This document shows, one piece after another, positions 6,641 through 32,000 of a DNA stretch of 32,000 nucleotides. Made by a program: the position numbers and the translations under genes. Under the pieces are notes generated by a model. The model was not told where the DNA came from. It was given only the letters and a program-made list of their open reading frames with translations, and ran no database searches. This DNA is from Ignavibacteriales bacterium (GTDB taxonomy: Bacteria > Bacteroidota > Ignavibacteria > Ignavibacteriales > Ignavibacteriaceae): positions 376,593-408,592 of the forward strand of contig JADJMD010000013.1 in NCBI GenBank assembly GCA_016709765.1, in the 5' to 3' direction. Positions within the stretch are counted from its first letter, which is position 1. The number at the start of each line of letters is the position of its first letter.

Positions 6641-7546
6641 TTAGAATTTCACTTCTCCGCACATACCGATCTTTAGATAACCGTTGTTTAATACTTTTAC
6701 TTTGATTGCATAAACAAGATTTGCACGTTCATCTTTAGTTTGGATTGTCTTTGGAGTAAACTCAGCTTTTGAAGATACCCAATAAATTTCTCCCAGCATC
6801 TCTTTTTGTTCACCTTCACCTTTATCTACAAATACTTTTACTTTTTGCTCAAGTTTTATTTGTCCAAGTTGATCACCATCAACGTACGCACGTAAAGTCA
6901 TTTCAGAAAGATCAGCAATTTTATAAAGTGCCTTGCCATTTACAGTAATCTCATCTGGTTTCGCGTAACGGGTTAAAACTGTTCCATCAATCGGATTTTT
7001 TATAATACTCTTTTTGATTTGATCTTCAATCTGTTCAACTTGTGCGATTAGCGGAAGAGTTTCACTTTGTATCCCTTGTTTCGTAATTGTTAAACTGGAT
7101 TTGGCTGCTGTGTATTGCTTGATTAAAACTTCTAACTGTGAGTTTATATCATCAAGTTGTTTTGTAGTTGCGGCATCCAATTTAACAAGATTTTCAATTC
7201 GCTTTTTCTCAACCTCAGTAGTTTCAATTTGCTTTTGAAGAGCTGCAAGTTGAGCACTAATATCAGGTTGTTTACTTAATACAGCTTTGATATTTGCCTG
7301 AAGTTGTTTTTTCTTAAGATATAATTGTGTTGTGTCAACTACTCCAACAATTTGATTTTGTTTAAGCTGCATTCCTTCTTCAACTTGAAACATTACAAGT
7401 TTTCCCATCGCTTCCGATGAAACAATAATCTCTTCTGATTCAAATGTACCCGTGGCATCAAAATCTCCATTACCATTCGAGCAGCCAAACAAAAGAGCTA
7501 CAGCTAAAATAAATGCAATGTTTAAAAATCTGTTTTTCATTTTCAT
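6641..7546 (-). CDS. HlyD-family membrane fusion / periplasmic adaptor protein (YbhG-like)
   Basis: 301 aa with a lipoprotein-type signal (LLFGCSN), a long Q/K/E-rich coiled coil and a beta-rich C-terminus. Located between the TolC-family and ABC genes. Confidence 0.85.
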   Translation of the reverse strand: MKMKNRFLNIAFILAVALLFGCSNGNGDFDATGTFESEEIIVSSEAMGKLVMFQVEEGMQLKQNQIVGVVDTTQLYLKKKQLQANIKAVLSKQPDISAQLAALQKQIETTEVEKKRIENLVKLDAATTKQLDDINSQLEVLIKQYTAAKSSLTITKQGIQSETLPLIAQVEQIEDQIKKSIIKNPIDGTVLTRYAKPDEITVNGKALYKIADLSEMTLRAYVDGDQLGQIKLEQKVKVFVDKGEGEQKEMLGEIYWVSSKAEFTPKTIQTKDERANLVYAIKVKVLNNGYLKIGMCGEVKF

Positions 7547-7560
7547 CTCTATAATATTTT

Positions 7561-8829
7561 TTAATTTCCTGTTGTGATTTTGTAGTTATACTGTGCGAGC
7601 AATAATTGAATTTTGTGAATCTCTAAATTTTGTTTTGAAGTATCTTCCGCATTTAAATCACGGACATAGTCACTGGAGGTAATCACCCCGTTTTCAAGTT
7701 TTGCTTTAGCTGATTCTTTAACTGAGGCTCTTAAATCAATTATACTTTTATCTACTTCAATCAATTTTTTAAGTTTATCAATTTCTTGTAGCTGCTGATT
7801 AGTGGTGATCTTTGTGTTTAGTAGGAATGTTTCCGTTTGAGCATCAATGCTTTGCAGATTTAACTGATTGATTTCACTTTCATTTCCATAGCTGTATAGA
7901 TTTGATAGTGACCATGAAAATCGAATACCGGTTATGTAATACCAATCAAAATCATTTATGAACATATTCAGTCCTGGTTTTCCGTATCCACCCTGAAAAA
8001 ACAAATTAGCTTTTGGAATAATTTTGGAAACAGTAATCCCATCCTGATTTTCTATCAGATTTTTCTGAGCTGAGTACATCTTCAATTCAGGTCTAATTAT
8101 TTCTTCGGCAGATAGATAATCAATTTGCGGTGGAGTAGAGAAAATAGTCGATTCATTTAAACTTTCATTTATTAACAAACCAAGTATATTGATATAAGAT
8201 ATACGTGAAGAGTTAAGTTCAATTTTGCGCTGCTCTGTTTTTAATAGCTCTGCCCTTAAAACATTGACATCAGATTTAGTTGCTGTGCCATTTGCATAAG
8301 CAGCATCAAGTTTTGAAATGCTGGCATTTAAATCATTTATAACAAGCTCAATTTGATTTACTTGAGATTCAATAAGAATAATGCCTAAATAAATTTGATT
8401 AACTCTTTCTTTAATCTTTAATAGTTCAATCTCAATTTTTTGATCATCAATTTCATTTACAGATTCCTGAATACCAGCTTGCGAACCCATTATTCCGCCG
8501 TCATAAATTGTCTGTGTTACATCAACTGCAGCCTTATATTGATCTTTTGAGAGTCTTTGAATTACAACTCCGGGCAATGGCATTGGAACCTCTGTCACAT
8601 CGGATTGATATGAAGCCTGTGCAATAAGAGTTATCTGTGGAAAGTATCCGTTCCAAATATTGCTGACGCTGTAATCCTTTGTTTTAGCAATGTAATCTTT
8701 CTGTTTTATAAGCGGATAATTTATTCTTGCCTTCTCATAGCAATCTTCAAGAGTAAGCTGCGTTTGAGGAATAATAAAATCCTGACTTATTAATAACAGG
8801 GTTATAAATAATAATCTTTTCATAATCAC
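7561..8829 (-). CDS. TolC-family outer membrane efflux protein
   Basis: 422 aa with a signal peptide and two tandem coiled-coil/beta repeats typical of the OEP family. 4-nt overlap with the upstream TetR gene. Confidence 0.85.
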   Translation of the reverse strand: MIMKRLLFITLLLISQDFIIPQTQLTLEDCYEKARINYPLIKQKDYIAKTKDYSVSNIWNGYFPQITLIAQASYQSDVTEVPMPLPGVVIQRLSKDQYKAAVDVTQTIYDGGIMGSQAGIQESVNEIDDQKIEIELLKIKERVNQIYLGIILIESQVNQIELVINDLNASISKLDAAYANGTATKSDVNVLRAELLKTEQRKIELNSSRISYINILGLLINESLNESTIFSTPPQIDYLSAEEIIRPELKMYSAQKNLIENQDGITVSKIIPKANLFFQGGYGKPGLNMFINDFDWYYITGIRFSWSLSNLYSYGNESEINQLNLQSIDAQTETFLLNTKITTNQQLQEIDKLKKLIEVDKSIIDLRASVKESAKAKLENGVITSSDYVRDLNAEDTSKQNLEIHKIQLLLAQYNYKITTGN

Positions 8830-9461
8830 ATCTTATTAATTGTTTGATTAAAAATTTTCTTTCCCCTTTTTTTTAGAATGCCATTTAATAGAATATTAAA
8901 TGTTAGTCTGAATTCTTGATGATAAGAGTAATTAGATAAATTATCTGATTTCGATGTTGCGATTGCTCCCAAAGCGGAAGTAAAAACTTTTATTATTATT
9001 TCATCAGGTATATCAAGAATCAATTCTTTCTCTTTACCATCTTTCAAAAGTCGATTTATCAGAGGGTTAATGTGGTGAATCCTGAATTGCTCGATGTAGT
9101 CAGCTAAATCTCTAAAATCATATCTCAATCTTTCAATGGATATTTCATTGAAAGCAGAGTAGTATTGTTCAACTATTTTTGATAGCTCAATAAATTTTTT
9201 AACAGTATTTCTTTCCTCTTCAATAATATTGATTAAATATCTGTACGGGTTGTTTAATTGATTTATTATGGCAGATCTTATTATTTCTTCTTTGGTTCGG
9301 AAAGTTTTATAAATTGTTTTTTTACTTATATGTAGCTCATTTGCAATTTGATCTACTGTAAAATTCCTAAAACCCTGAGTTGATAATTTCTTCTCGATAT
9401 GGTCGAGTATTCGAGATTTTAATTGATCTTCATTTTGATTTATGATTTCTATGGGTTTCAT
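8826..9461 (-). CDS. TetR/AcrR-family transcriptional regulator (first gene of the efflux operon)
   Basis: N-terminal HTH FTVDQIANELHISKKTIYKTFRTKEEI, followed by a helical ligand domain. Occupies a CecR(YbiH)-like position next to the YbhGFSR-type genes. Confidence 0.8.
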   Translation of the reverse strand: MKPIEIINQNEDQLKSRILDHIEKKLSTQGFRNFTVDQIANELHISKKTIYKTFRTKEEIIRSAIINQLNNPYRYLINIIEEERNTVKKFIELSKIVEQYYSAFNEISIERLRYDFRDLADYIEQFRIHHINPLINRLLKDGKEKELILDIPDEIIIKVFTSALGAIATSKSDNLSNYSYHQEFRLTFNILLNGILKKRGKKIFNQTINKM

Positions 9462-20516: not shown

Positions 20517-21339
20517 AAATAATTTTAATAGTAATTTATTGAATTAAAAATTTACTGTGAAATTTTATTAACGACTAACCAAACATCCTCAATCAAATTC
20601 AAATAAAAAAGAATCAAGAATTATTATTTTAATTAGGTATGACCATCTATGAGTAAAAGAACTTCAAATAATATTTATTTGGGTTGATAGTAAGTAGTAC
20701 ACCACGACTAAAATACAAATGAGAACTGCTGCTATCATAACTTCTAAAAATTATAGAGATGGATTCTTAAACTTCATAAAATTTTCAATCAATAGGGTGT
20801 ACAATAAAAACCGCATTACCCCGAGGTATTATCGAAGACTTTTTTTTACAGATAACTATAAAATGAGAATCTATAAAGTCTTTGGTTAGAGAGTTTATCT
20901 CAATTATCTTGTTGCCGTTCAATATAAGTCTTTCCAAAATTTGATTAAAATCATGATAAAGATAGTAACTAATCGAGAATTAAAAGATATATTTATTTTG
21001 AGCGGTAATTATTTTTGATGGAGAAGTTGAGATTTCCTAATGATGCTAAAATTAATTTATTGTCAAGAGTAAGTTGTATAAAATTTAATTTGTTTTTTTA
21101 ACAAATTATTTTCATTTTCGATTTGAATTAAGAGGGACTAGAAAGAATTTGCTTTTATAATTTGAAAAACCCAAAGCAGCTGTAACTACTTTGGGTTTAA
21201 AATGATAATTTCCGACAGCAAATTTAAGCTTGCGGTCGGATCATCTGATGTTAGTTGTGATAACTACAACCACAACTTAACCACTCTTTTGAATAAACGC
21301 AAGCGATTTTTTTTACTTTTTTAGAAAGGTGTCATTAAG

Positions 21340-21474
21340 ATGGCAAATCATAAAAAAGTGAAGCGCCAAGGTTTGCGTCTGATCTTTAGAAGATTTAGAA
21401 CTCTAAAAGACGGAAGAATTCTGGATGCTTACGATTATGGTTTAAGAGCTTGGCCAATGTGGGTCAAATCTTAG
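21340..21474 (+). CDS. Unannotated 44-codon basic ORF (MANHKKVKRQGLRLIFRRFRTLKDGRILDAYDYGLRAWPMWVKS)
   Basis: ATG..TAG. It uses GC-richer codons (CGC, CGT, CTG, GGT) than the surrounding AT-rich spacer and is followed 22 nt later by a clean terminator. It is too short for length alone to be significant. Confidence 0.3.
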   Translation: MANHKKVKRQGLRLIFRRFRTLKDGRILDAYDYGLRAWPMWVKS

Positions 21475-21496
21475 TAACTAATAATTGAACCGTTTG

Positions 21497-21525
21497 CCGG
21501 TGTCGGTCTACTACACCGGTTTTTA
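21497..21525 (+). terminator. Rho-independent terminator
   Basis: 7-bp stem CCGGTGT/ACACCGG (21497-21503 and 21513-21519) with a 9-nt loop, followed by TTTTT. Confidence 0.5.
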
Positions 21526-21703
21526 TATATTAAGATCGATTTTTCTTGAACACGAATACTTCTTTACCTAAATTAATCTCAATAATTAATTGATTTTGAA
21601 CTTTTGTACAAAGATTTTTTCTATTGCACATTTTCAAATCTATATTGTTCACTTCCAACTTTCTTACTGAGCGGGTAAAGGGTTAATACTATTCTTATAA
21701 TCT

Positions 21704-23278
21704 ATGGCAAAAAAAACTTCTAAACCTAAAAAACAAAAAAGTATCGAAGAAACTCTTTGGGATTCCGCCAACAAACTTCGCGGATCAGTAGAACCAGCCG
21801 AGTATAAACACGTTGTACTGGGACTCATCTTCCTAAAATTCGCTAGCGATAAATTTGAACAGCGTAAACAGGAACTCATATCAGAAGGCAAAGAAAAATA
21901 TATTGATATGGTTGAGTTCTATACTATGAAAAATGTTTTCTACCTTCCGGAAATTTCCCGGTGGACTTATTTAATTGAAAATGCAAAACAGTCAGATATC
22001 TCATTAAAAATTGATACTGCTCTTTTCACAGTTGAAAAAAATAATCCTGCTCTTAAAGGTGCTTTACCTGATAATTATTATTCCAGAATCAATCTAGAAC
22101 AAAGTAAAATTTCGGCATTATTAGATACTATTAATAATGTTGATACGCTCAGAGATAAAGAACAAGATCTTGTTGGTCGTGTATATGAATATTTCCTCAG
22201 CAAATTTGCTATTGCCGAAGGAAAAGGAAAAGGAGAATATTATACACCAAAATCTATCGTAAATTTGATCGCAGAATTGATCGAACCTTACAATGGTAAA
22301 ATATATGATCCCTGCTGCGGCTCAGGTGGTATGTTTGTTCAGTCTGTAAAGTTTGTAGAAAGTCATCACGGAAATAAAAAAAATATTTCCATTTATGGTC
22401 AGGAGGCAACAAACACTACTTACAAATTAGCTAAAATGAATCTTGCTATACGTGGTATTTCTGCAAACTTTGGTGAAAAAGCAGTTAGCACTTTTACAAA
22501 CGATCAGCATAAAGATCTTAAAGCTGATTTTGTTATGGCTAATCCCCCTTTCAATCAAAAAGATTGGCGTGCAAGTGACGAATTACTTTCTGATCCCCGT
22601 TGGAATGGATATGATGTACCGCCAGTCAGTAATGCAAATTATGCTTGGATATTAAATATAGTATCCAAACTGTCTGTAAACGGTGTAGCTGGATTTTTAT
22701 TAGCAAATGGTGCACTTGGCGATCCCGACACAATATCTATTCGTACACAACTAATTAAAAATGATCTTGTAGAATCTATAATTGTTTTGCCTCGTGATAT
22801 GTTTTATAGCACGGATATTAGCGTAACTCTTTGGATATTAAACGCTAATAAGAAATCGAGAACAATTGACCATGCGGGAAAAACTGTTAATTATCGTAAT
22901 CGCCAGAAGGAAGTACTCTTCATAGATTTACGACGATGTGGGGCTGAATATGAAAAAAAGTATATTCAACTTACAGAACAGGATGTTGAAAAAGTTAGAT
23001 CAACATATCATAATTGGCAATCAACCAAATACAAACAGGATTATCAAAATATTCCCGAGTATTGTTATTCTGCAACTTATAAAGAAATTGAAAATAATGG
23101 ATTTTCTTTAATCCCAAGCAAATATATTGAATTCGTTGATAGAGATAATAAGATTGATTTTGATAGAGAGATGAAACGGATTCAAAAAGAATTTAAAACA
23201 ATTCTAAAAGAAGAAATTGAATCGCAACAAGAATTACTAAATGCATTTAAAGGATTGGGGTATGAAATCAAACTTTAA
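21704..23278 (+). CDS. hsdM: Type I restriction-modification system, DNA methyltransferase subunit M
   Basis: HsdM_N-like LWDSANKLRGSVEPAEYKHVVLGLIFLKFASDKFE. SAM motif I is YDPCCGSGGMF. Catalytic motif IV is NPPF (VMANPPFNQKDW). Confidence 0.95.
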   Translation: MAKKTSKPKKQKSIEETLWDSANKLRGSVEPAEYKHVVLGLIFLKFASDKFEQRKQELISEGKEKYIDMVEFYTMKNVFYLPEISRWTYLIENAKQSDISLKIDTALFTVEKNNPALKGALPDNYYSRINLEQSKISALLDTINNVDTLRDKEQDLVGRVYEYFLSKFAIAEGKGKGEYYTPKSIVNLIAELIEPYNGKIYDPCCGSGGMFVQSVKFVESHHGNKKNISIYGQEATNTTYKLAKMNLAIRGISANFGEKAVSTFTNDQHKDLKADFVMANPPFNQKDWRASDELLSDPRWNGYDVPPVSNANYAWILNIVSKLSVNGVAGFLLANGALGDPDTISIRTQLIKNDLVESIIVLPRDMFYSTDISVTLWILNANKKSRTIDHAGKTVNYRNRQKEVLFIDLRRCGAEYEKKYIQLTEQDVEKVRSTYHNWQSTKYKQDYQNIPEYCYSATYKEIENNGFSLIPSKYIEFVDRDNKIDFDREMKRIQKEFKTILKEEIESQQELLNAFKGLGYEIKL

Positions 23279-24392
23279 ACGTATTGGAAATTATTTGCAG
23301 TTGGTTGATGAACGTAACACTGGACTAAAAATTACTCGCCTTTTAGGTATAAATATTACTAAAAACTTTATGCCTTCAGTCGCTAATACTTCTGGCGTCG
23401 ATTTATCAAGATACAAAACAGTTAAGAAAGATAGATTTGCTTGTAATATCATGCATGTAGGTAGAGATGAAAAACTGCCAATCGCTTTATACGCTGAAGA
23501 TGAACCGGCCATTGTTTCACCTGCTTATATGACTTTTGAAGTAATCAATACTCAAGAATTATTACCAGAATATTTAATGATGATATTTCAACGCGCTGAG
23601 TTCGATAGGTTTACTTGGTTTGTAAGTGATAATAGCGTAAGGGGTGGTTTGGATTGGGAAAGATTTTGTGAAATAGAAATTCCAATCCCAGATGATATTA
23701 AAGAACAAAAACTATTTGTTGAAATATATAGTAAATTACTTACCAATCAGGCGTGCTACGACAATAGTTTAAATGATCTTGAATTAATTTGTGATTCATT
23801 TATGGAATCACTTTTACAAACTGAAGTACCAAAAGTATTGGGTTCATACATTAAGCAATCAGAAGAGTACAACTCTAATTACACAATAAAAAATCTTTTA
23901 GGTATTAGTGTTGAAAAGAAATTTTTTCCATCTAAAACAAAACAAGAAGGTATTGATTTCAGAAGTTACAAGATTGTTAGAAAAAGGCAATTTGGATATG
24001 TTACTGTAACTTCAAGAAATGGTGAAAAAATTTCAATTGCATTATTGGAAGAGTCAGATGGCATTGTTTCAAGTACATATCTAGTATTTGATATTATTGA
24101 TAAAGATGTTCTTTTGCCTGAATTTCTTTTTCTATGGTTTAAACGACCAGAGTTTGATCGTTACGCTAGATACCACTCTTGGGGTAGTGCAAGAGAAACT
24201 TTCGACTGGACTGATATGTGCAATGTAAAATTGCCAATTCCAGATGTTGAAATTCAAAAATCAATTGTAGCGATCCACCATACACTTGAAACCCGAAAAA
24301 GATTAAATAATAAATTAAAAAACTTGATTGCTCCTCTATGCCCTATCTTAGTTAAAGGAGTTATTGGAAATTTTAAACTTGTAACTTCATAA
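23241..24392 (+). CDS. hsdS: Type I restriction-modification system, specificity subunit S
   Basis: Two tandem target-recognition halves. Each ends in a conserved block: LLPEYLMMIFQRAEFDRFTWFV...GLDWERFCEIEIPIPD and LLPEFLFLWFKRPEFDRYARYH...TFDWTDMCNVKLPIPD. It overlaps the hsdM end; the true start may be Met8 at 23262. Confidence 0.85.
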   Translation: MHLKDWGMKSNFKRIGNYLQLVDERNTGLKITRLLGINITKNFMPSVANTSGVDLSRYKTVKKDRFACNIMHVGRDEKLPIALYAEDEPAIVSPAYMTFEVINTQELLPEYLMMIFQRAEFDRFTWFVSDNSVRGGLDWERFCEIEIPIPDDIKEQKLFVEIYSKLLTNQACYDNSLNDLELICDSFMESLLQTEVPKVLGSYIKQSEEYNSNYTIKNLLGISVEKKFFPSKTKQEGIDFRSYKIVRKRQFGYVTVTSRNGEKISIALLEESDGIVSSTYLVFDIIDKDVLLPEFLFLWFKRPEFDRYARYHSWGSARETFDWTDMCNVKLPIPDVEIQKSIVAIHHTLETRKRLNNKLKNLIAPLCPILVKGVIGNFKLVTS

Positions 24393-24401
24393 ATAGATAC
24401 A

Positions 24402-25931
24402 ATGAAAATTAAGTCAGTCAAAATAAAAAATTTTAGAAGCTATAAAGATGAGATCAGTATTGAAATTGGTAATCTCACTGCTTTTGTTGGAAAGAATGAC
24501 ATTGGTAAATCTTCTCTTCTTGAAGTATTAGATTTTTTCTTCAACGAAGGAAAGGGTGTAATCAAATTAGATAAAGATGATATAAACAAATCAGCGTTAG
24601 CTGTTGGGGACAATGAAATTATTATTACTGTTGAATTTGAAGAATTACCTCCAACGATTGTAATTGACAGCACTAACGAAACCACACTCCAAAATGAATA
24701 TCTATTAAATCAATATGGACGCTTGACAATCATAAAAAAATATCCCAACGCAGGAAAAGAAAAAGTTTTTGTCAAAGCTTATCATCCAAACAATCCGCAT
24801 TGCAGAGATTTACTGAAGAAAACGAATACAGAGTTAAGAGCAATACTTAGCGATAGTAATATTGAATGTACTGATAGAACTAGGAATGCAGTGATGCGAA
24901 CTGCAATCTGGGATCATTATCGCGATTCACTTCAATTAGAAGATATTGAAATTGACGTTACAAAAGCGGATGTCAAATCCATTTGGGAAAAACTGCAAGA
25001 GTATTTGCCTTTATATTCATTATTTCAATCTGATAGAAAAAACAGTGATGGAGATAGTGAAGTACAAGACCCGTTAAAAGAAGCGGTAAAACAAATTCTC
25101 AAAAATGTAGAACTGAAAACTTTATTAAGCAGAGTTGCAGCTGAAGTTGAAACGAAATTAAGAGATGTAGCAAGTAGCACTCTTGAAAAACTAAACGAGC
25201 TGAATCCTGATGTTGCAAATTCTCTTAATCCAATCATTCCTTCTTCAGAAAATTTAAAATGGTTAGATGTTTTTAAAAGTGTTTCCATTGCTGGAGACGA
25301 GGATATTCCAATTAATAAAAGAGGTAGTGGAATAAAGCGTTTAATCCTGCTAAGCTTCTTTAGAGCAGAAGCAGAAAGAAGAAGGGCAGAAAAAAGTATT
25401 CCAAGCATTGTTTATGCTATTGAAGAACCCGAAACATCACAGCATACTGAACATCAGAAAAAATTAATGACCGCACTTTTAACTCTTGCAGGAGTTGCAA
25501 ACACTCAAATCCTTTTGACAACACACAGTGCAGTTGCAGTGAAAGAACTGAAGTTCGAACATATCCGCCTTATAGCTGAAACTGTAGAAGGCAAAACAAT
25601 AAAAGAAGTTATTCCAAATCAGTTGCCTTATCCCTCACTTAACGAAGTAAACTTTTTAGCGTTTAATGAAGTTACCGAAGAATATCACAATGAACTCTAT
25701 GGATTTATTGACGCAGAAGGATGGTTGAACAATTTCAAAAATGGCAAACCAACTATGAGTTACATCAAAGTATTAAGAGGTGGAAATACAAGATTAGAAC
25801 AAATAATACTTACAGAATATATCAGGCATCAAATTCATCATCCCGAAAACACGAACAATATAAGATTTACAAATGAGCAACTTTGTGAATCTATAAATCT
25901 AATGAGAGATTTTATTGAAGCACAACCATAA
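24402..25931 (+). CDS. ABC/SMC-type (AAA_15/AAA_21-like) ATPase with an uncharacterised ~130-aa C-terminal domain, embedded in the Type I R-M operon
   Basis: MKIKSVKIKNFRSYKD, Walker A GKNDIGKSS, RGSGIKRL, Walker B VYAIEEPE, H-loop LLTTHS. The C-terminus contains YIRHQIHHPEN (R-x4-H). It lies 9 nt after hsdS and 6 nt before hsdR. Confidence 0.8.
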   Translation: MKIKSVKIKNFRSYKDEISIEIGNLTAFVGKNDIGKSSLLEVLDFFFNEGKGVIKLDKDDINKSALAVGDNEIIITVEFEELPPTIVIDSTNETTLQNEYLLNQYGRLTIIKKYPNAGKEKVFVKAYHPNNPHCRDLLKKTNTELRAILSDSNIECTDRTRNAVMRTAIWDHYRDSLQLEDIEIDVTKADVKSIWEKLQEYLPLYSLFQSDRKNSDGDSEVQDPLKEAVKQILKNVELKTLLSRVAAEVETKLRDVASSTLEKLNELNPDVANSLNPIIPSSENLKWLDVFKSVSIAGDEDIPINKRGSGIKRLILLSFFRAEAERRRAEKSIPSIVYAIEEPETSQHTEHQKKLMTALLTLAGVANTQILLTTHSAVAVKELKFEHIRLIAETVEGKTIKEVIPNQLPYPSLNEVNFLAFNEVTEEYHNELYGFIDAEGWLNNFKNGKPTMSYIKVLRGGNTRLEQIILTEYIRHQIHHPENTNNIRFTNEQLCESINLMRDFIEAQP

Positions 25932-25937
25932 TTAAAT

Positions 25938-28900
25938 ATGAAATTCACAGAAGAACAATTGGAAAAAGCTGTTGTTGAGTTATTTGAATCTGTACATATT
26001 CCTCATCTGCACGGTGAAACGATTCATAAAGAAATCAGCGATGTTCTGCTTCGCGATGACTTAAAACAATTTCTCTTTACTCAGTATGCAGATGACAATA
26101 TTACTCCAAACGAAGTTCAATCAATTATTCGCCAATTAGATATTCTTCCCTCTTCATCATTATATGATAGTAATAAAACTTTTCTAAGTCTGTTAGCCGA
26201 TGGTTTTACAATAAAACGCGAAGATAGAAGCAAAAAAGATTTATTCATCCAGCTTATAGATTATAATCCTATTGTAAACTTTCAATCGGATTTATTTAGT
26301 AATACGATTCTGAAAGCAGCCGAGCCGAAATCAGATTACAAAGCACAAGACAACAACATCTACAAATTTGTTAACCAGCTTGAAATTCAGGGCTATGAAA
26401 AACGTATTCCTGATGGAATTTTATATATAAATGGCTTGCCTCTTGTTGCAATTGAATTCAAGAGTGCAATTAAAGAAGAAACAACAATTAAAGATGCTTA
26501 TACACAATTAACGATTCGCTACAAAAGAGATATTCCGGAACTATTTAAATACAATGCGTTCTGTGTAATTAGCGATGGAGTAAACAACAAAATAGGTTCG
26601 CTATTTGCAAAGTATAATTATTACTATGCCTGGCGCAAGATAAATCCTGAAGATGAAGCAGTTGATGGTATTGATTCACTTTATAGTATGGTTAAGGGTT
26701 TATTTAATAAAACCAGATTGCTAGATGTTATTCAAAACTTCATATATTTCCCTGATAGTGCAAAAGATGATACAAAAATTGTCTGTCGTTATCCCCAATA
26801 TTATGCAGCAAGAAAAATTTTCGAGAATATAAAACTCAATATGCGTCCGGATGGAAATGGTAAAGGTGGTACTTATTTCGGTGCAACAGGTAGCGGCAAG
26901 AGTTATACTATGCTTTATCTTAGTCGAATATTAATGAAAAGTACTCACTTCAAAAGTCCTACAATTATTTTAATTACTGATAGAAAAGATCTTGATGATC
27001 AGCTTTCAGCACAATTTACAAATGCAAAAAAATTCATTGGTGATGAAAATATAATAAGTGTTGAAAGTCGTGAGGAATTAAAATCCCACCTTAAAGACAG
27101 AAAAAGCGGCGGCGTATTCTTAACAACTATTCACAAATTTACTGAGGCTCTTGAACTGCTCACTGATAGAGCAAATGTCATTTGCATTTCAGATGAAGCT
27201 CATCGTTCACAAATAAATCTCGATCAAAAAATTGTAGTCACTGCTAAAGGTGTTGAGCGTAAATATGGTTTTGCAAAATTTTTGCACGATTCATTGCCTA
27301 ATGCAACTTATGTCGGCTTCACCGGCACTCCTATAGATGCAACTCTTGATGTATTTGGAAATGTTGTCGATGCATATACGATGAAAGAATCAGTCGCTGA
27401 TGAAATTACAGTAAAAATAGTTTACGAAGGCAGAGCAGCAAAAGTCTTACTGAATGAAGCTAAGTTAAAGGAAATTGAAGAGTACTATAAAAAATGTGCA
27501 GCAGAAGGGGCAAACGAATATCAGATTGAAGAAAGTAAACGGGCAACAACTCAACTTGAAGCCATATTGGGTCATCCGGATCGTATAAAGTTATTGGCAA
27601 AGGATTTTGTCGAGCATTACGAAAAAAGGATAGAGGAAGCTGCTACGGTAAAAGGTAAAGTTATGTTTGTTGCGGCAAGTCGCCCCATTGCTTTCAGTCT
27701 TTACAATGAAATTATAAAATTAAGACCTGCCTGGATTGAGATAAAGGAATGTGATGCAGGTATCGAGCTTAGTGAAAATGAACGCAGAGAAATTAAACCT
27801 TCTGAAAAAATAAAACTTGTAATGACTCGCAGTAAAGATGATCCTAAAGAACTCTGGGATTTAATAGGTACAAAAGAATATCGCAAAGAATTAGATCGTC
27901 AATTCAAGAATGATAAATCTAATTTTAAAATTGCAATCGTTGTTGATATGTGGATTACTGGTTTCGATGTACCGTTCCTTGATACTATGTATATAGACAA
28001 ACCGATTCAACAGCATTCACTTATCCAGACTATTTCAAGAGTCAACCGTGTTTATGAAGGCAAAGAAATGGGTTTGGTAGTAGATTATATCGGCATTAAA
28101 AGTAATATGAACATCGCTCTTGCTAAATATTCAAAAGTAGATGCAAATGATTTTGAAGATATCAATAAAGCAGTTATTCTTGTAAAAGATCAGCTCGACT
28201 TATTATCCAAACTCTTTCATCAGTTTGATACAACTGCTTATTTCCAGGGAACACCTTTGCAGCAGTTAGGATGTCTGAATCGTGGAGTGGAATTTGTACA
28301 GCTCACCGATGAATTGGAAAAAAGATTTGTAAATCTCACAAGAAAATTACGCTCTGCATATAATCTTTGCTGCAATAGCGATGCAATATCCCGCACCGAA
28401 AGAGATCATATTCATTTCTATCTCGCTATCAAAGCAATCCTCCACAAACTCACAAACGGTGATGCGCCGGATACTGCCCAGATGAATGAACAAGTTAGAA
28501 AAATGATTGTAGAAGCATTAATAAGTGAGGGTATTGAGGAAATATTCAAATTGGATGAAAGCGATCCAAAAAATAATTTGGATATTTTTAGTGAAGATTA
28601 TATGGCCAAAATAGATAAGATAAAATTACCGAATACTAAAATTAAATTGTTACAGAAACTTTTATCTCGTGCAATATCAGAATTCAAAAAAACTAATAGA
28701 ATCAAAGGCATAGATTTTTCGCAAAAGCTCAGAAAACTTGTGGAGCTTTATAACGAACGCAAAGATTTTGAAGTATTTAAAAGTGATGTATTGGATGACG
28801 TTGCTGAACAATTCACAAACTTATTCGAAGAATTAAAAAAAGAACGAAACTCATTTATTGAATTGGGAATTGATTTCGAAGAAAAAGCATTTTACGATAT

Positions 28901-29159
28901 TCTAAAATCAATTGCTGAAAAATATAAATTTGAATATCCGCACGATAAATTAATTGTGCTATCAAGAGCGATAAAAATAATCATTGATGATAAAGCTAAA
29001 TACACAGACTGGTCGCATCGTGATGATATAAAAGCTGAATTAAAAGTGGATCTGATTTTAATCCTGGCAGAACATGGCTATCCACCAGTTCCAAAAGATG
29101 AAGTCTTCAAAGAAATTTTTGAACAAGCAGAAAACTTTAAAAAGTATTCAAGCATTTAA
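25938..29159 (+). CDS. hsdR: Type I restriction enzyme, endonuclease/translocase subunit R
   Basis: 1073 aa. N-terminal PD-(D/E)xK-like PDGILYINGLPLVAIEFKS, Walker A GATGSGKSYTM, DEAH box ISDEAHRSQ, motif III GFTGTP, motif VI QTISRVNR, and a long helical C-terminal domain. Confidence 0.95.
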   Translation: MKFTEEQLEKAVVELFESVHIPHLHGETIHKEISDVLLRDDLKQFLFTQYADDNITPNEVQSIIRQLDILPSSSLYDSNKTFLSLLADGFTIKREDRSKKDLFIQLIDYNPIVNFQSDLFSNTILKAAEPKSDYKAQDNNIYKFVNQLEIQGYEKRIPDGILYINGLPLVAIEFKSAIKEETTIKDAYTQLTIRYKRDIPELFKYNAFCVISDGVNNKIGSLFAKYNYYYAWRKINPEDEAVDGIDSLYSMVKGLFNKTRLLDVIQNFIYFPDSAKDDTKIVCRYPQYYAARKIFENIKLNMRPDGNGKGGTYFGATGSGKSYTMLYLSRILMKSTHFKSPTIILITDRKDLDDQLSAQFTNAKKFIGDENIISVESREELKSHLKDRKSGGVFLTTIHKFTEALELLTDRANVICISDEAHRSQINLDQKIVVTAKGVERKYGFAKFLHDSLPNATYVGFTGTPIDATLDVFGNVVDAYTMKESVADEITVKIVYEGRAAKVLLNEAKLKEIEEYYKKCAAEGANEYQIEESKRATTQLEAILGHPDRIKLLAKDFVEHYEKRIEEAATVKGKVMFVAASRPIAFSLYNEIIKLRPAWIEIKECDAGIELSENERREIKPSEKIKLVMTRSKDDPKELWDLIGTKEYRKELDRQFKNDKSNFKIAIVVDMWITGFDVPFLDTMYIDKPIQQHSLIQTISRVNRVYEGKEMGLVVDYIGIKSNMNIALAKYSKVDANDFEDINKAVILVKDQLDLLSKLFHQFDTTAYFQGTPLQQLGCLNRGVEFVQLTDELEKRFVNLTRKLRSAYNLCCNSDAISRTERDHIHFYLAIKAILHKLTNGDAPDTAQMNEQVRKMIVEALISEGIEEIFKLDESDPKNNLDIFSEDYMAKIDKIKLPNTKIKLLQKLLSRAISEFKKTNRIKGIDFSQKLRKLVELYNERKDFEVFKSDVLDDVAEQFTNLFEELKKERNSFIELGIDFEEKAFYDILKSIAEKYKFEYPHDKLIVLSRAIKIIIDDKAKYTDWSHRDDIKAELKVDLILILAEHGYPPVPKDEVFKEIFEQAENFKKYSSI

Positions 29160-29172
29160 TTTGGTATGGTCC

Positions 29173-29856
29173 ATGGCAAATCAAAAATGGTATGAAAAGG
29201 CTACTGTCCAAGCTGCACTAGTAGCAATCGCTCCCTCAATTATTACAGCAATTATTGCAATCATTTCTATCGTGTTGACTTATAAGGCTGCTAATACCCA
29301 AATTGAATTAAATAAAGATCAATACGAACGTGACAGTATTAATTCAGCACTTCAACTTGAATTAGTTCTCAAACAAATTGAATTGGCGAACAGAAGTTTT
29401 TTAAATGATAGTGTTATCAGTCTCCAACAATTAAACATTACAAGAGAAAATTATAGATTATTAGAATCTGAAAGAAATATTAAGAGATCTGCCGATTGGG
29501 GAAAGTTACGTAATACTATGTGGGCAATATTTGATTTAACAACTTCAGGTGCGCATGGATTTGTTGCTTTAGATAGCCTTTCTGAAAAAGAAAAGGAAAA
29601 TAGAAGTAATAAAATTTTGATCCTGCTAAATTCTGAAATAGACAATCCTGTATTAATTGATAATAAAAAATGTCTAGGTTACTGGCGTAACGCAATATCA
29701 AAATCTAAAAACCTTAAAGACAAAGCACTAGCCAATCACTTTAAATTTTCTGAGCAAGTATCATCTTTAATGAATGATGTAATTGTTGTATGGGCAGAAT
29801 TAGTTTTAGACTCTAAAGAGGTATCTCCTACTGGCGGGAAACCGATAATAAAATAA
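29173..29856 (+). CDS. Membrane-anchored protein of unknown function, co-oriented 13 nt downstream of hsdR
   Basis: The track ORF begins at 29074 inside hsdR. The first ATG after the hsdR stop is 29173 (MANQKWYEK...). One TM (VQAALVAIAPSIITAIIAIISIVLTY) is followed by a coiled-coil-like soluble region. No family recognised. Confidence 0.5.
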   Translation: MANQKWYEKATVQAALVAIAPSIITAIIAIISIVLTYKAANTQIELNKDQYERDSINSALQLELVLKQIELANRSFLNDSVISLQQLNITRENYRLLESERNIKRSADWGKLRNTMWAIFDLTTSGAHGFVALDSLSEKEKENRSNKILILLNSEIDNPVLIDNKKCLGYWRNAISKSKNLKDKALANHFKFSEQVSSLMNDVIVVWAELVLDSKEVSPTGGKPIIK

Positions 29857-30077
29857 GGTATGAAATTTAAATAATCTAGTTCTAATTGAAATATTCAATT
29901 TTACCAGCTGGCTGGTCCAATTCTTTTCAGTGTCGCTTAAGTATCCAAATGAATAAACCTATTCTCATAAAACCCAATTCCTATACTACCAGCTTTCGAC
30001 AAAAACTAAAATTATGTAACTAAGTCAAGAATTGGGGTATAAGAAGGATATACTAACAACTAATTAGGAGTGTTACT

Positions 30078-30785
30078 ATGTCCTTCACTATTGGTGCAGA
30101 TCCTGAGTTGATCTGCCACAGAAACGGTCAGTTTGTTCCTGCTCATAATTTTTTCAAGAGTAATAGTTCATTTGGTTTAGATGGATGTGAATCAACTGCT
30201 GAGATTCGTCCAGGTCTTTCTGAATCCCCTGTTGATCTAACTTCAAAGATTTATCAAATCTTAGATTACGGTCACGACAAAGCACCTGACCTTGAGTTCA
30301 TATCAGGACACTACGTGAATGATTATTCAATAGGTGGTCACACACACTTTTCTATTGATCCACTTCCTGAGATTATAGATGGACTGGATATTGTTTTAGG
30401 TTCACTTAGCAACTGCATTGATGATAAAATGCAGAGACAGAAAAGAGAACGTTCTGGTTATGGTAAGAAAGGTGCATACAGAAGAAAATCTTACGGTTTT
30501 GAATATCGTACACCAGGAAGTTTTCTTCTATCACCTTCTGTTACACTCGTTCACTTCACGCTTGCAAAGCTTACTGTTGTCGGTGTCCTTGAAGACAAGG
30601 TAGATTTCAACGAATTAAAAAATCGTCAACATTCCTGTACATTTCTTAAATCACTCAAACATTCATTGCACACAATTCCGGATGATTGCAGAGAAGGCCT
30701 TAAAGAACTTGATACACTTCTAGGTAAAAGACTAAACTGGAATCAGGACATACTTCCAAACTGGGGATTAAGGAGGGCAGCATAA
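30078..30785 (+). CDS. Amidoligase-like (glutamine-synthetase/GCS2-fold, Amidoligase_2-like) protein
   Basis: 235 aa with SD AGGAG at 30066-30070. It has four ordered blocks: IGADPELI, FGLDGCESTAEIRPG, IGGHTHFS and YGFEYRTPGS. They resemble the GxExE, GxHxH and ExR blocks of carboxylate-amine ligases. The assignment is from memory only. Confidence 0.45.
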   Translation: MSFTIGADPELICHRNGQFVPAHNFFKSNSSFGLDGCESTAEIRPGLSESPVDLTSKIYQILDYGHDKAPDLEFISGHYVNDYSIGGHTHFSIDPLPEIIDGLDIVLGSLSNCIDDKMQRQKRERSGYGKKGAYRRKSYGFEYRTPGSFLLSPSVTLVHFTLAKLTVVGVLEDKVDFNELKNRQHSCTFLKSLKHSLHTIPDDCREGLKELDTLLGKRLNWNQDILPNWGLRRAA

Positions 30786-31384
30786 TGCACTGTCATAATT
30801 GTGAAGATGAACTCCGTGATGATCAGGTGCGTTGGGCATTTGAAGAACCATATTGTGAAGATTGTTTTGATAATATGTTCAATTACTGCTGCAGATGTGA
30901 TGGAGTTATCTACAGAGAATCCGCTCACTATAACGATGAGGGAGATCCATATTGTTCAGATTGCTATGAAAGTAATTATGATGACGATGCGCCCGACAAT
31001 CCTGCTGTAAGCGATAGTGACAGAGAACTTGTTGTAAAACTTTCACGAAGCTGGCTGCAGGGAAAGATTGAAACAAGGCGACCTCTATTTATAAACGATA
31101 AAGATATTTTGCTCAGAACAATCAAAGACAAAGTTGGATTAGTTGATAATCCAATCTATGTATTTGGTTTAACCGACAGAGATGAATATCAATTATCAGT
31201 AAGTGCTGATCTGTTTGATAAAGTTCAAACCTTCGTTCAGCTTAATGATCTAAAAGCAATTGTTGTATCCAGTCCTGGATGTAACAGACTTGGGATATCA
31301 TTAACACTTCGTAAGAATAATCAGAAAGAAATAATTGAGCTGATTAAACAGATCACCACGGTAAGAGAACTGGTTCCCGCCTAA
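30785..31384 (+). CDS. Double zinc-ribbon (4x CxxC) protein with acidic linker and unknown C-terminal domain
   Basis: 199 aa. C3xxC6-x17-C24xxC27-x7-C35xxC38-x18-C57xxC60, then YESNYDDDAPDNPAVSDSD. Its start overlaps the upstream stop (TAATG), with SD AAGGAGG upstream. Confidence 0.6.
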   Translation: MHCHNCEDELRDDQVRWAFEEPYCEDCFDNMFNYCCRCDGVIYRESAHYNDEGDPYCSDCYESNYDDDAPDNPAVSDSDRELVVKLSRSWLQGKIETRRPLFINDKDILLRTIKDKVGLVDNPIYVFGLTDRDEYQLSVSADLFDKVQTFVQLNDLKAIVVSSPGCNRLGISLTLRKNNQKEIIELIKQITTVRELVPA

Positions 31385-31407
31385 TCATTAACAAGGAGTA
31401 AAATATA

Positions 31408-32000
31408 ATGTGTGGAATAATGGGCTGGTATAGCTTCGGCAATACTCTGCCCGATAAAGATAAAATAACAAATATGTTTTCATTGCTTGAAAGCCGTGGG
31501 CGTGATGCCAGCGGCATTTGTTTTATAAAAGATAATAATCTTATAGTTCACAAAGATGCAATGAAGTCTTCTGAATTTGTAAAGACTGATGACTGGAAAG
31601 AACTTGTACTTCCCTCTTCAATGATCCTACATACGAGAATGAAAACTCAGGGATCAGAGAAGAACAATGCAAACAATCATCCTCTGTTCTCAAAGAATGG
31701 AATTGCAATTGTACACAATGGAATCATCTATAACGATAAAGAAATCTTTGGCAAGAAAGAACGTGATGCAGAGGTTGATTCAGAATCAATACTTCATCTT
31801 CTTTCAATGAAAGTTAAGGGAGATAAAATTAAAAGACTCTTTGATAAAGTAGAAGGTTCTTTTGCAGTTGCTATGCTTGATAAATATTTCCCTGAAAGAT
31901 TAGTTCTTATCAAAAAAGATAATCCAATTGATCTGTATTACGATTCAAAGGATGATATTCTTTATTTCTGCAGTGAACGAGAAATTATGCAGGAAGCATT
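31408..32000 (+). CDS. Class-II (Ntn) glutamine amidotransferase domain protein, 3' end beyond the window
   Basis: Not in the ORF track because it is open-ended. SD AAGGAG at 31393-31398. My translation is MCGIMGWYSF...LLESRGRDASGICF...ILHTRMKTQGSEKNNANNHPLF...AIVHNGIIYNDKEIFG...AEVDSESILHLL...VEGSFAVAMLD...LYFCSERE. That gives the Cys2 nucleophile and the canonical GAT-II blocks. Confidence 0.85.
   Translation, partial: MCGIMGWYSFGNTLPDKDKITNMFSLLESRGRDASGICFIKDNNLIVHKDAMKSSEFVKTDDWKELVLPSSMILHTRMKTQGSEKNNANNHPLFSKNGIAIVHNGIIYNDKEIFGKKERDAEVDSESILHLLSMKVKGDKIKRLFDKVEGSFAVAMLDKYFPERLVLIKKDNPIDLYYDSKDDILYFCSEREIMQEA

Follow-up and report, generated by a model that had tools for sequence, protein, structure and literature searches.

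A carboxylate-amine ligase, a zinc-ribbon protein and a class-II amidotransferase share a six-gene cassette with a Mu Gam-like protein in Ignavibacteriota

Pairs of amidoligases and glutamine amidotransferases are common in phages, and our literature searches returned no report in which their function is tested. The closest described arrangement is that of phage phiEco32, which encodes a ligase (gp86), a protein of 205 amino acids (aa; gp85), an Amidoligase_2-like protein (gp84), a 676-aa amidotransferase (gp83), an ATP-grasp protein (gp80) and a GGCT-like (YtfP-like) protein (gp77). Iyer, Abhiman, Burroughs and Aravind (Mol Biosyst, 2009) are said to have predicted this type of amidoligase cluster, which is reportedly the source of the family PF14395. 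The pairing of such a ligase with a class-II glutamine amidotransferase may be regarded as already known in the form of a prediction. Ligases of the glutamine synthetase (GS)/GCS fold are also encoded together with enzymes of the glutamine amidotransferase (GATase) fold in ergothioneine synthesis (EgtA/EgtC) and in putrescine catabolism (PuuA/PuuD), and in GatCAB a glutaminase, a carboxylate-phosphorylating subunit and a small adaptor amidate the carboxylate of a macromolecule. Here we describe a related locus at the right end of a 32,000-nucleotide (nt) stretch from an Ignavibacteriales bacterium (assembly GCA_016709765.1, contig JADJMD010000013.1, positions 376,593 to 408,592; hereafter the window), where three plus-strand open reading frames (ORFs) encode an ATP-dependent carboxylate-amine ligase (gene 1, LIG), a zinc-ribbon protein (gene 2, ZNR) and a class-II (Ntn) glutamine amidotransferase (gene 3, GAT). 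An initial annotation, made from the sequence of the window alone, had stated that it knew of no experimentally characterised system with this three-gene composition, and none turned up in our literature searches. What appears to be new is a trio of minimal size, the family of its obligatory ZNR member with the C-terminal domain, and a six-gene Gam cassette beside a variable cargo slot in Ignavibacteriota elements. A minimal, self-sufficient trio with a previously unnoticed zinc-ribbon partner makes the function of amidoligase and amidotransferase pairs a more tractable problem.

The coordinates, Shine-Dalgarno sites, gene overlap and intergenic gap given for the trio in the initial annotation are all read directly in the sequence (Table 1), and every protein motif that it quoted is found in the translations. 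It had also noted that the end of the window truncates the operon. JADJHL010000002.1 matches the window at 99.7% identity, and among the 21 contigs with a gene for a protein identical to LIG, the longest supply the locus past position 32000, where three further conserved genes follow. The conserved unit therefore has six genes and not the three first proposed: a cassette of about 3.5 kb in the order LIG, ZNR, GAT, Arc-like repressor, Mu Gam-like protein (Gam) and a protein of about 145 aa without family (post-Gam protein), with which a sequence search of solved structures returned nothing useful. We scanned one genome per species and obtained 56 Ignavibacteriota loci, in which ORFs were called, clustered and profile-searched; counts of cassette genes are limited to loci with enough sequence. 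LIG is present in 52 of 53 loci, GAT in at least 46 of 50 with the order of the trio kept, Gam in 44 of 47 and the post-Gam gene in 43 of 46. The trio thus co-occurs well beyond the window, in these 56 loci and in all three distant phage-like contigs tested. In the cassette, its genes are coupled in translation and are inherited together with Gam and the small repressor.

The ratio of non-synonymous to synonymous substitution (dN/dS) lies between 0.03 and 0.18 across LIG, ZNR, GAT and Gam, which indicates strong purifying selection and hence that these four genes are functional. The boundaries of the cassette are sharp. Comparison of the window locus with eight relatives by blastn reveals that DNA homology begins 42 nt before the ATG of LIG (around 30031) and stops at the stop codon of the post-Gam gene. 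At this left edge lies a TATAAT-like motif, GGTATAAGAA, which occurs only once in the window; its general form, GG[T/A/C]ATAAG[A/C], is found 36-52 nt before the LIG ATG in 37 of 42 related loci, and at 36-46 nt in 35 of these 37. Because a simple sigma-70 scan missed this conserved motif, we rank it no higher than a candidate promoter or operator. Between it and the gene upstream lies a weak terminator-like hairpin. Gene content and cassette boundaries are thus shown, as are purifying selection and the folds, conserved catalytic residues and mobile-element and phage context described below.

Table 1. Features of the locus, in window coordinates.
Feature	Position	Strand	Description
Type I restriction-modification (R-M) region	21704..29856	+	Type I R-M with embedded AriA-like ATPase and 227-aa protein with a single transmembrane (TM) helix; Pfam, PADLOC; variable cargo outside the cassette
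hsdM	21704-23278
hsdS	23241-24392
AAA_15/AriA-like ATPase	24402-25931		509 aa, between hsdS and hsdR; PADLOC AriA (PARIS) E 2.7e-73, residues 1-377
hsdR	25938-29159
227-aa protein	29173-29856		between hsdR and the ligase operon; one N-terminal TM helix; without Pfam, PADLOC or PHROG family
Weak terminator-like hairpin	29903-29916
GGTATAAGAA motif	30036..30045	+	TATAAT-like; left cassette edge
Shine-Dalgarno of gene 1	30066-30070		AGGAG
Gene 1 (LIG)	30078..30785	+	235 aa, PF14395 phiEco32-like COOH-NH2 ligase type 2
Basic loop of LIG	30432-30491		residues 119-138
Shine-Dalgarno of gene 2	30770-30776		AAGGAGG
Overlap of gene 1 stop and gene 2 start	30783-30787		TAATG
Gene 2 (ZNR)	30785..31384	+	199 aa, LIM-like double zinc ribbon and C-terminal domain
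Spacer between genes 2 and 3	31385-31407		23 nt
Shine-Dalgarno of gene 3	31393-31398		AAGGAG
Gene 3 (GAT)	31408..32000, cut by window end	+	class-II (Ntn) glutamine amidotransferase
Cassette gene 4	beyond window		Arc-like ribbon-helix-helix, 55 aa; PHROG 3.4e-5
Cassette gene 5	beyond window		Mu Gam-like, 183 aa; PF07352 E 1.8e-9, 38.1 bits against a cut-off of 28.3; PHROG 'Mu Gam-like end protection' 1.4e-9
Cassette gene 6 (post-Gam)	beyond window		about 144 aa at the window locus; without family match

Two irregularities were seen in the cassettes of other loci. In eight of them (L021, L024, L043, L058, L060, L061, L062 and L071) an antisense pair, consisting of a VapB-like protein (66 aa) and a PIN-domain VapC-like protein (135 aa), is inserted between ZNR and GAT and leaves both genes intact. 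Cassette genes split by frameshifts occur in L020, L022, L024, L039, L054 and L115; many of these lie in contigs of metagenome-assembled genomes (MAGs), where sequencing errors are indistinguishable from true pseudogenes.

The likeness of the trio to phiEco32 begins with its ligase, which comes from the same Pfam family, gp86 matching the LIG profile at 1e-10. Both have, after the ligase, a protein of about 200 aa and then a class-II amidotransferase, all in one transcriptional direction, and both are experimentally uncharacterised as far as literature searches showed. However, gp84, the 676-aa amidotransferase, the ATP-grasp protein and the GGCT-like protein are all without counterpart in the cassette, and gp85 has no similarity to ZNR. 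The cassette, for its part, is tied to the Arc-like, Gam and post-Gam genes and resides in an integrative element and not in a lytic phage. Neither Amidoligase_2 nor ATP-grasp was found in the cassette-bearing loci with Pfam annotation or in the scanned recurrent families, whereas the full set is present in phiEco32 and in one phage-like contig (L074). Judged from these gene sets, the cassette carries a reduced variant of the phiEco32-type system, in which another gene stands in the middle.

The trio is a phage-type module. In all three distant phage-like contigs that we looked up, the order LIG-ZNR-GAT is kept, with a PF14395 ligase on one side of the ZNR relative and a GATase_6/7 protein on the other. 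The 181-kb contig L074 also carries Amidoligase_2, GATase_4, RimK, a single-stranded DNA-binding protein (SSB), a poly-gamma-glutamate (gamma-PGA) hydrolase and RNA and DNA ligases, and L077 carries RtcB and RimK. In L076, genes for NUDIX and NAMPT proteins lie three genes downstream of the trio (7116-9434), together with RlaP and an RNA ligase, a combination which we take to resemble a phage NAD-salvage counter-defence pathway.

LIG matches PF14395 (COOH-NH2_lig) with an E-value of 4.7e-33 and 114.9 bits, above the curated cut-off of 25, and its residues 5-213 align to positions 1-221 of the 254 in the profile. A search of the PDB with the sequence alone returned nothing useful. The AlphaFold2 (AF2) model of the protein (predicted local distance difference test, pLDDT, 89.9; predicted template modelling score, pTM, 0.89) was compared with the PDB by Foldseek, in which YbdK/GCS2 (1tt4, 1r8g) are the best matches, followed by Dop/PafA and then by glutamine synthetases, all with probability 1.0. 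The GS/GCS2-type ligase fold that the initial annotation had assigned to gene 1, and for which it had proposed profile and Foldseek searches as a check, is thus borne out by both. Residues D8, E10, D35, E42, R44, H66, E73, H88, H90, E142 and R144 are at least 95% conserved among 43 homologues; acidic, histidine and arginine residues of this kind are usual in the carboxylate-amine ligase fold. The dN/dS of LIG is 0.03-0.06. A further feature of LIG is a strongly basic loop, QRQKRERSGYGKKGAYRRKS, and the linker of ZNR is strongly acidic, YDDDAPDNPAVSDSD. The opposite charges of these two segments suggest a possible electrostatic docking pair.

ZNR is composed of an N-terminal LIM-like double zinc ribbon (residues 3-60), the acidic linker and an alpha/beta C-terminal domain of about 120 aa. 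Its Pfam result consists of a LIM match below threshold and no other family. The AF2 model (pLDDT 84.8) matches LIM domains in its N-terminal half, and for the C-terminal domain only weak fold matches and no known family were obtained. Eight cysteines are invariant in the alignment, as are R80, R88, N104, D107, Y125, G128, D131, G165, G170 and R176; the C-terminal domain thus has conserved arginine, aspartate, asparagine and tyrosine residues without a metal-ligand set. The dN/dS of ZNR is 0.03-0.11. The close homologues (n = 137) are all of about 199 aa and every named one comes from Ignavibacteriota, and IMG/VR holds no close relative of the Ignavibacteriota ZNR. A profile search extends the family to 997 proteins at E <= 1e-3, in which the full-length relatives combine one to several LIM-like repeats with the same C-terminal domain; the copy number of the zinc-ribbon module varies from 1 to about 7. 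The module is also fused to PF14395-type ligases (P0247, P0252 and L094) and to Amidoligase_2, the latter by Pfam match in L007, L084 and L100 and by sequence motifs only in P0258. Since the module is fused to both ligase families in phages, a direct partnership of ZNR with the ligase is suggested. In annotated phage genomes, tblastn with ZNR gave one weak match, to the zinc-ribbon part of an Amidoligase_2 protein; the distant homologues P0139 and P0178 had no match there, and no cultured phage with a ZNR-type trio was found among the genomes searched. The genes of about 180-205 aa that follow the ligases in L008, L009 and phiEco32 (gp85) were considered as ZNR homologues and rejected, as BLASTP, hhalign and profile hidden Markov models (HMMs) were all negative.

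GAT matches GATase_6 (8.1e-16) and GATase_7 (1.1e-12), both above the curated cut-offs. Its full length, 297 aa, is seen in the near-identical contigs L001 and L002 (gene at L002 11331-12224). It consists of a glutaminase domain, an extension of about 100 aa and a C-terminal four-cysteine zinc ribbon, without a synthetase domain. The protein starts with MCGI, so that the nucleophilic cysteine directly follows Met1, and C2, R77, N104, G105, D124, C264, C267, C282 and C285 are at least 95% conserved among 38 homologues. The family matches, together with the conservation of Cys2, R77, N104-G105 and D124, agree with the earlier assignment of gene 3 to the Ntn class-II amidotransferases. The closest solved relatives are the glutaminase domains of GlmS and PurF. 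Pfam scans gave no match of GAT to GATase_4, which we take to be the family that holds the hydrolase EgtC (GATase_4/YafJ group). The subtype of GAT mildly favours a role in ammonia donation. As the catalytic residues of both enzymes are kept under strong selection, both probably are active.

Among the better studied ligases, PafA and Dop share with LIG the carboxylate-amine ligase fold (Foldseek probability 1.0, template modelling score 0.52-0.60 on the query). They may also be alike in an ATP-dependent acyl-phosphate chemistry on a glutamate carboxylate and in the participation of a separate small protein. However, LIG with its 235 aa is half their size, its partner is an Ntn amidotransferase and not a second GS-fold enzyme, a Pup-like protein with a Gly-Gly-Glu/Gln end is missing, the C-termini of ZNR showing no such conservation, and proteasome genes are lacking. 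EgtA/EgtC and PuuA/PuuD differ from the cassette in being metabolic and chromosomal and in having no zinc-ribbon adaptor; EgtC, moreover, presumably belongs to the GATase_4/YafJ group, whereas GAT is of the GATase_6/7 type. GatCAB is likened to the trio by analogy only, as there is no sequence or fold kinship of the trio to GatA, GatB or GatC and no tRNA link was found. The operon as a whole resembles the leading-region or early anti-defence modules (acr-aca operons, Gam, clusters of DUF932, RadC and anti-restriction genes), in which effectors are likewise joined in an operon by a DNA-end protector and a small repressor, within an integrative element. DUF932 and RadC are presumably linked to leading regions, and one or the other lies downstream of the cassette in 21 of 44 loci with enough sequence. 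Neither is mentioned in PMC11541004. Unlike these modules, the cassette has no known anti-restriction, anti-CRISPR (Acr) or SSB gene.

Across the cassette family, the loci show what is expected of integrative elements, namely integrase, replication genes, multiple copies and varied chromosomal sites. Of the 56 loci, 9 have a tyrosine integrase, in three of these (L037, L052 and L068) one is located upstream of the cassette, and the fuller loci have DnaG- or PrimPol-DUF5906 primase-helicases 5-8 kb downstream of it. One contig of 176 kb carries two divergent cassettes and one MAG carries four, and close relatives of the cassette are found in at least four different downstream host contexts. Relaxase, type IV secretion system and capsid genes were not identified in the loci with Pfam annotation; the other loci were not screened for them. 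Since the window's own island is without integrase or primase, and its ends show no convincing attachment-site (att) direct repeats and no tRNA genes, it may be a reduced element. At the window locus, the cassette is followed by a 269-aa, weakly C39-like cysteine peptidase and then by a convergent efflux operon of the resistance-nodulation-division (RND) type. Papain-like cysteine peptidases recur downstream of the cassette (L030 13082-13579, L002 13481-14290, L031 18004-18960). One of them is a clear Peptidase_C39 (165 aa, E 4.6e-16) and the others, including the gene just past the window, form a weaker C39-like family of 269-319 aa. Such a peptidase could be a tag-removing partner of the amidoligase.

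On the upstream side, the Type I R-M operon with an embedded ATPase that had been described beside the trio is confirmed, with hsdM, hsdS, an AriA-like ATPase and hsdR assigned (Table 1). The ATPase has no AriB/Toprim partner and its last 130 or so residues are without assignment. The 227-aa single-TM protein sides with this variable R-M region, outside the conserved cassette. However, none of the eight related loci has, upstream of its cassette, DNA homologous to the R-M region of the window, and this position is variably occupied: by Type I R-M with the AriA-like ATPase in the window, and elsewhere by MmeI-type IIG enzymes, a KAP NTPase with phospholipase C, a PglZ-containing (BREX-like) cluster, two GmrSD proteins with a helicase and Abi_C, QatABCD with Type III R-M, or a giant DarT-containing protein. 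Genes that are not of defence type, such as those for LacI regulators, FGGY kinases and periplasmic binding proteins, also stand among the first three genes upstream of the cassette. When 110 upstream neighbours were pooled and scanned with PADLOC and Pfam, the outcome was family counts, from which we claim neither a per-locus defence fraction nor an enrichment statistic. Because homology begins 42 nt before gene 1 and the upstream side varies, the adjacency of the R-M operon does not point to a common function: the neighbouring R-M is swappable cargo and not a partner of the trio. More generally, adjacency to defence genes can mean the cargo slot of an element and not a shared function. A difference in cargo is also seen within the MAG of the window itself, where two contigs (L018 and L022) represent the same chromosomal site with RND flanks 91.7% identical, cassette alleles 85% identical and unrelated upstream cargo; this difference could be due to strain heterogeneity in the MAG or to allele replacement by recombination.

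The setting of the trio is a Gam and repressor operon at the edge of a variable cargo hotspot of a mobile element, frequently occupied by defence genes. Our preferred explanation, in which we place about as much confidence as doubt, is that the trio is the enzymatic front half of a six-gene operon, the conserved core of integrative mobile elements, which serves establishment or counter-defence by amidation or gamma-glutamylation. What we infer in this explanation is the chemistry, the adaptor role, the timing and the counter-defence role. LIG would use ATP to activate a target carboxylate as an acyl-phosphate, as expected from GS/GCS2/PafA-fold chemistry. GAT would hydrolyse glutamine and supply the ammonia by which the carboxylate (-COOH) is converted to the amide (-CONH2). 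It is also possible, and less favoured by us, that LIG adds a gamma-glutamyl group which GAT later removes, as in EgtA/EgtC or PuuA/PuuD. ZNR may act as an adaptor which recruits the target or holds both enzymes together. The operon would most likely act when the element or phage enters the cell or establishes itself in it, for counter-defence or host takeover. This role is suggested because the trio is linked to Gam, to a repressor-containing operon, to DUF932/RadC neighbours and to phage contexts with RNA repair and NAD salvage. In a more specific form, the trio would be a new type of counter-defence enzyme system of phages and integrative elements, and its target for amidation or gamma-glutamylation would be a host immune protein, a signalling molecule or partners of the incoming DNA, with ZNR picking the target and expression coming in a burst with Gam at entry. 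We regard this counter-defence version as tentative and somewhat doubtful; if it is true, amidation or glutamylation joins the known immune-evasion chemistries.

Several points weigh against this explanation. The argument on timing, from Gam and the repressor, is one of guilt by association. We know of no GS-fold ligase that takes ammonia from an amidotransferase partner, and LIG is taken as the acceptor of GAT ammonia from operon linkage only. The known pairings EgtA/EgtC and PuuA/PuuD are add-then-remove gamma-glutamyl cycles. Defence genes stand directly beside the cassette in several loci, and defence and superinfection-exclusion genes do occur on mobile elements and phages. In the window, where integrase and primase are absent, the cassette may be a domesticated remnant which serves the host.

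It is in this light that a role of the cassette, or of the trio, in element-borne defence or superinfection exclusion has to be considered, in which a component of the cell envelope or a host factor would be modified against other phages. In the initial annotation, the position of the trio beside the R-M operon was taken to fit a defence-island or a DNA/protein-modification role, and defence-type genes indeed lie directly upstream in all seven distinct loci with precomputed Pfam calls, which are those listed above. Intact cassettes persist in islands without integrase, that of the window among them, as would be expected if the host gained from them, and the passages of later papers that cite Iyer et al. 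2009 credit that work with a role of the phiEco32 cluster in cell-wall modification that excludes other phages. However, the upstream defence genes are never alike, they end exactly at the cassette boundary, and LacI regulators, FGGY kinases and periplasmic binding proteins share their position. PADLOC-DB v2 (E <= 0.01) contains no match for LIG, ZNR, GAT, the Arc-like, Gam and post-Gam proteins, the C39-like proteins, DUF932 or RadC. No envelope-targeting or secretion domain was found in the cassette genes by family scans, Gam, as a protector of DNA ends, belongs with incoming DNA rather than with defence, and the phage neighbours of the trio are nucleic-acid repair and NAD-salvage genes. With variable upstream genes and with companions and phage contexts of the mobile-element type, a role in defence beside the R-M operon is not supported, and we consider a defence or exclusion function unlikely. 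The R-M systems that adjoin the cassette would also suit a trio that makes or hypermodifies DNA bases, for example through an amidated carboxylated side chain, and so shields the DNA of the element from restriction. Lee et al. 2021 (PMC8989533) found, in viral contigs, that genes assigned by Pfam to amidoligases and glutamine amidotransferases accompany 5-HMUDK/aGPT-Pplase clusters, and the conserved arginines and zinc ribbons of ZNR might bind nucleic acid. Yet no kinase, aGPT-Pplase, dUMP hydroxymethylase, TET/JBP or DpdA-type gene was present in the Pfam-annotated loci or the scanned cassette families, and no 5-HMUDK or other base-activating or base-exchanging enzyme lies near the trio in the three phage-like contigs. 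It is also hard to see how an integrated element, replicated by its host, would obtain a modified precursor. With no thymidine- or deazaguanine-hypermodification genes in these annotated surroundings, we hold hypermodification by the trio, to which the initial annotation had alluded, to be highly improbable.

It is also conceivable that the trio works in the synthesis or recycling of a small molecule, be it a gamma-glutamyl amine or peptide or an amidated nucleotide (for instance NAD from its deamido form), with Gam and the other genes as mere neighbours. The best structural match of LIG, YbdK/GCS2, is indeed a small-molecule gamma-glutamyl ligase; RimK and gamma-PGA hydrolase in the phage clusters, and the GGCT-like YtfP in phiEco32, all belong to gamma-glutamyl chemistry, and NUDIX and NAMPT lie close to the trio in L076. 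However, Dop and PafA, whose substrate is a protein tag, score nearly as well as YbdK, and the LIM-like module, of which there are between 1 and about 7 copies and which is found fused to ligases, points to a macromolecular partner. The linkage to Gam in 44 of 47 loci argues against a chance neighbourhood, and a small-molecule product seems to us rather improbable.

At the far side of the R-M operon, the 1.2-kb gap between a gene with an HD_4 domain and hsdM (20517-21703) contains no att-like repeat or tRNA. It is mostly non-coding and holds a small basic ORF of 44 aa (21342-21476), MANHKKVKRQGLRL...

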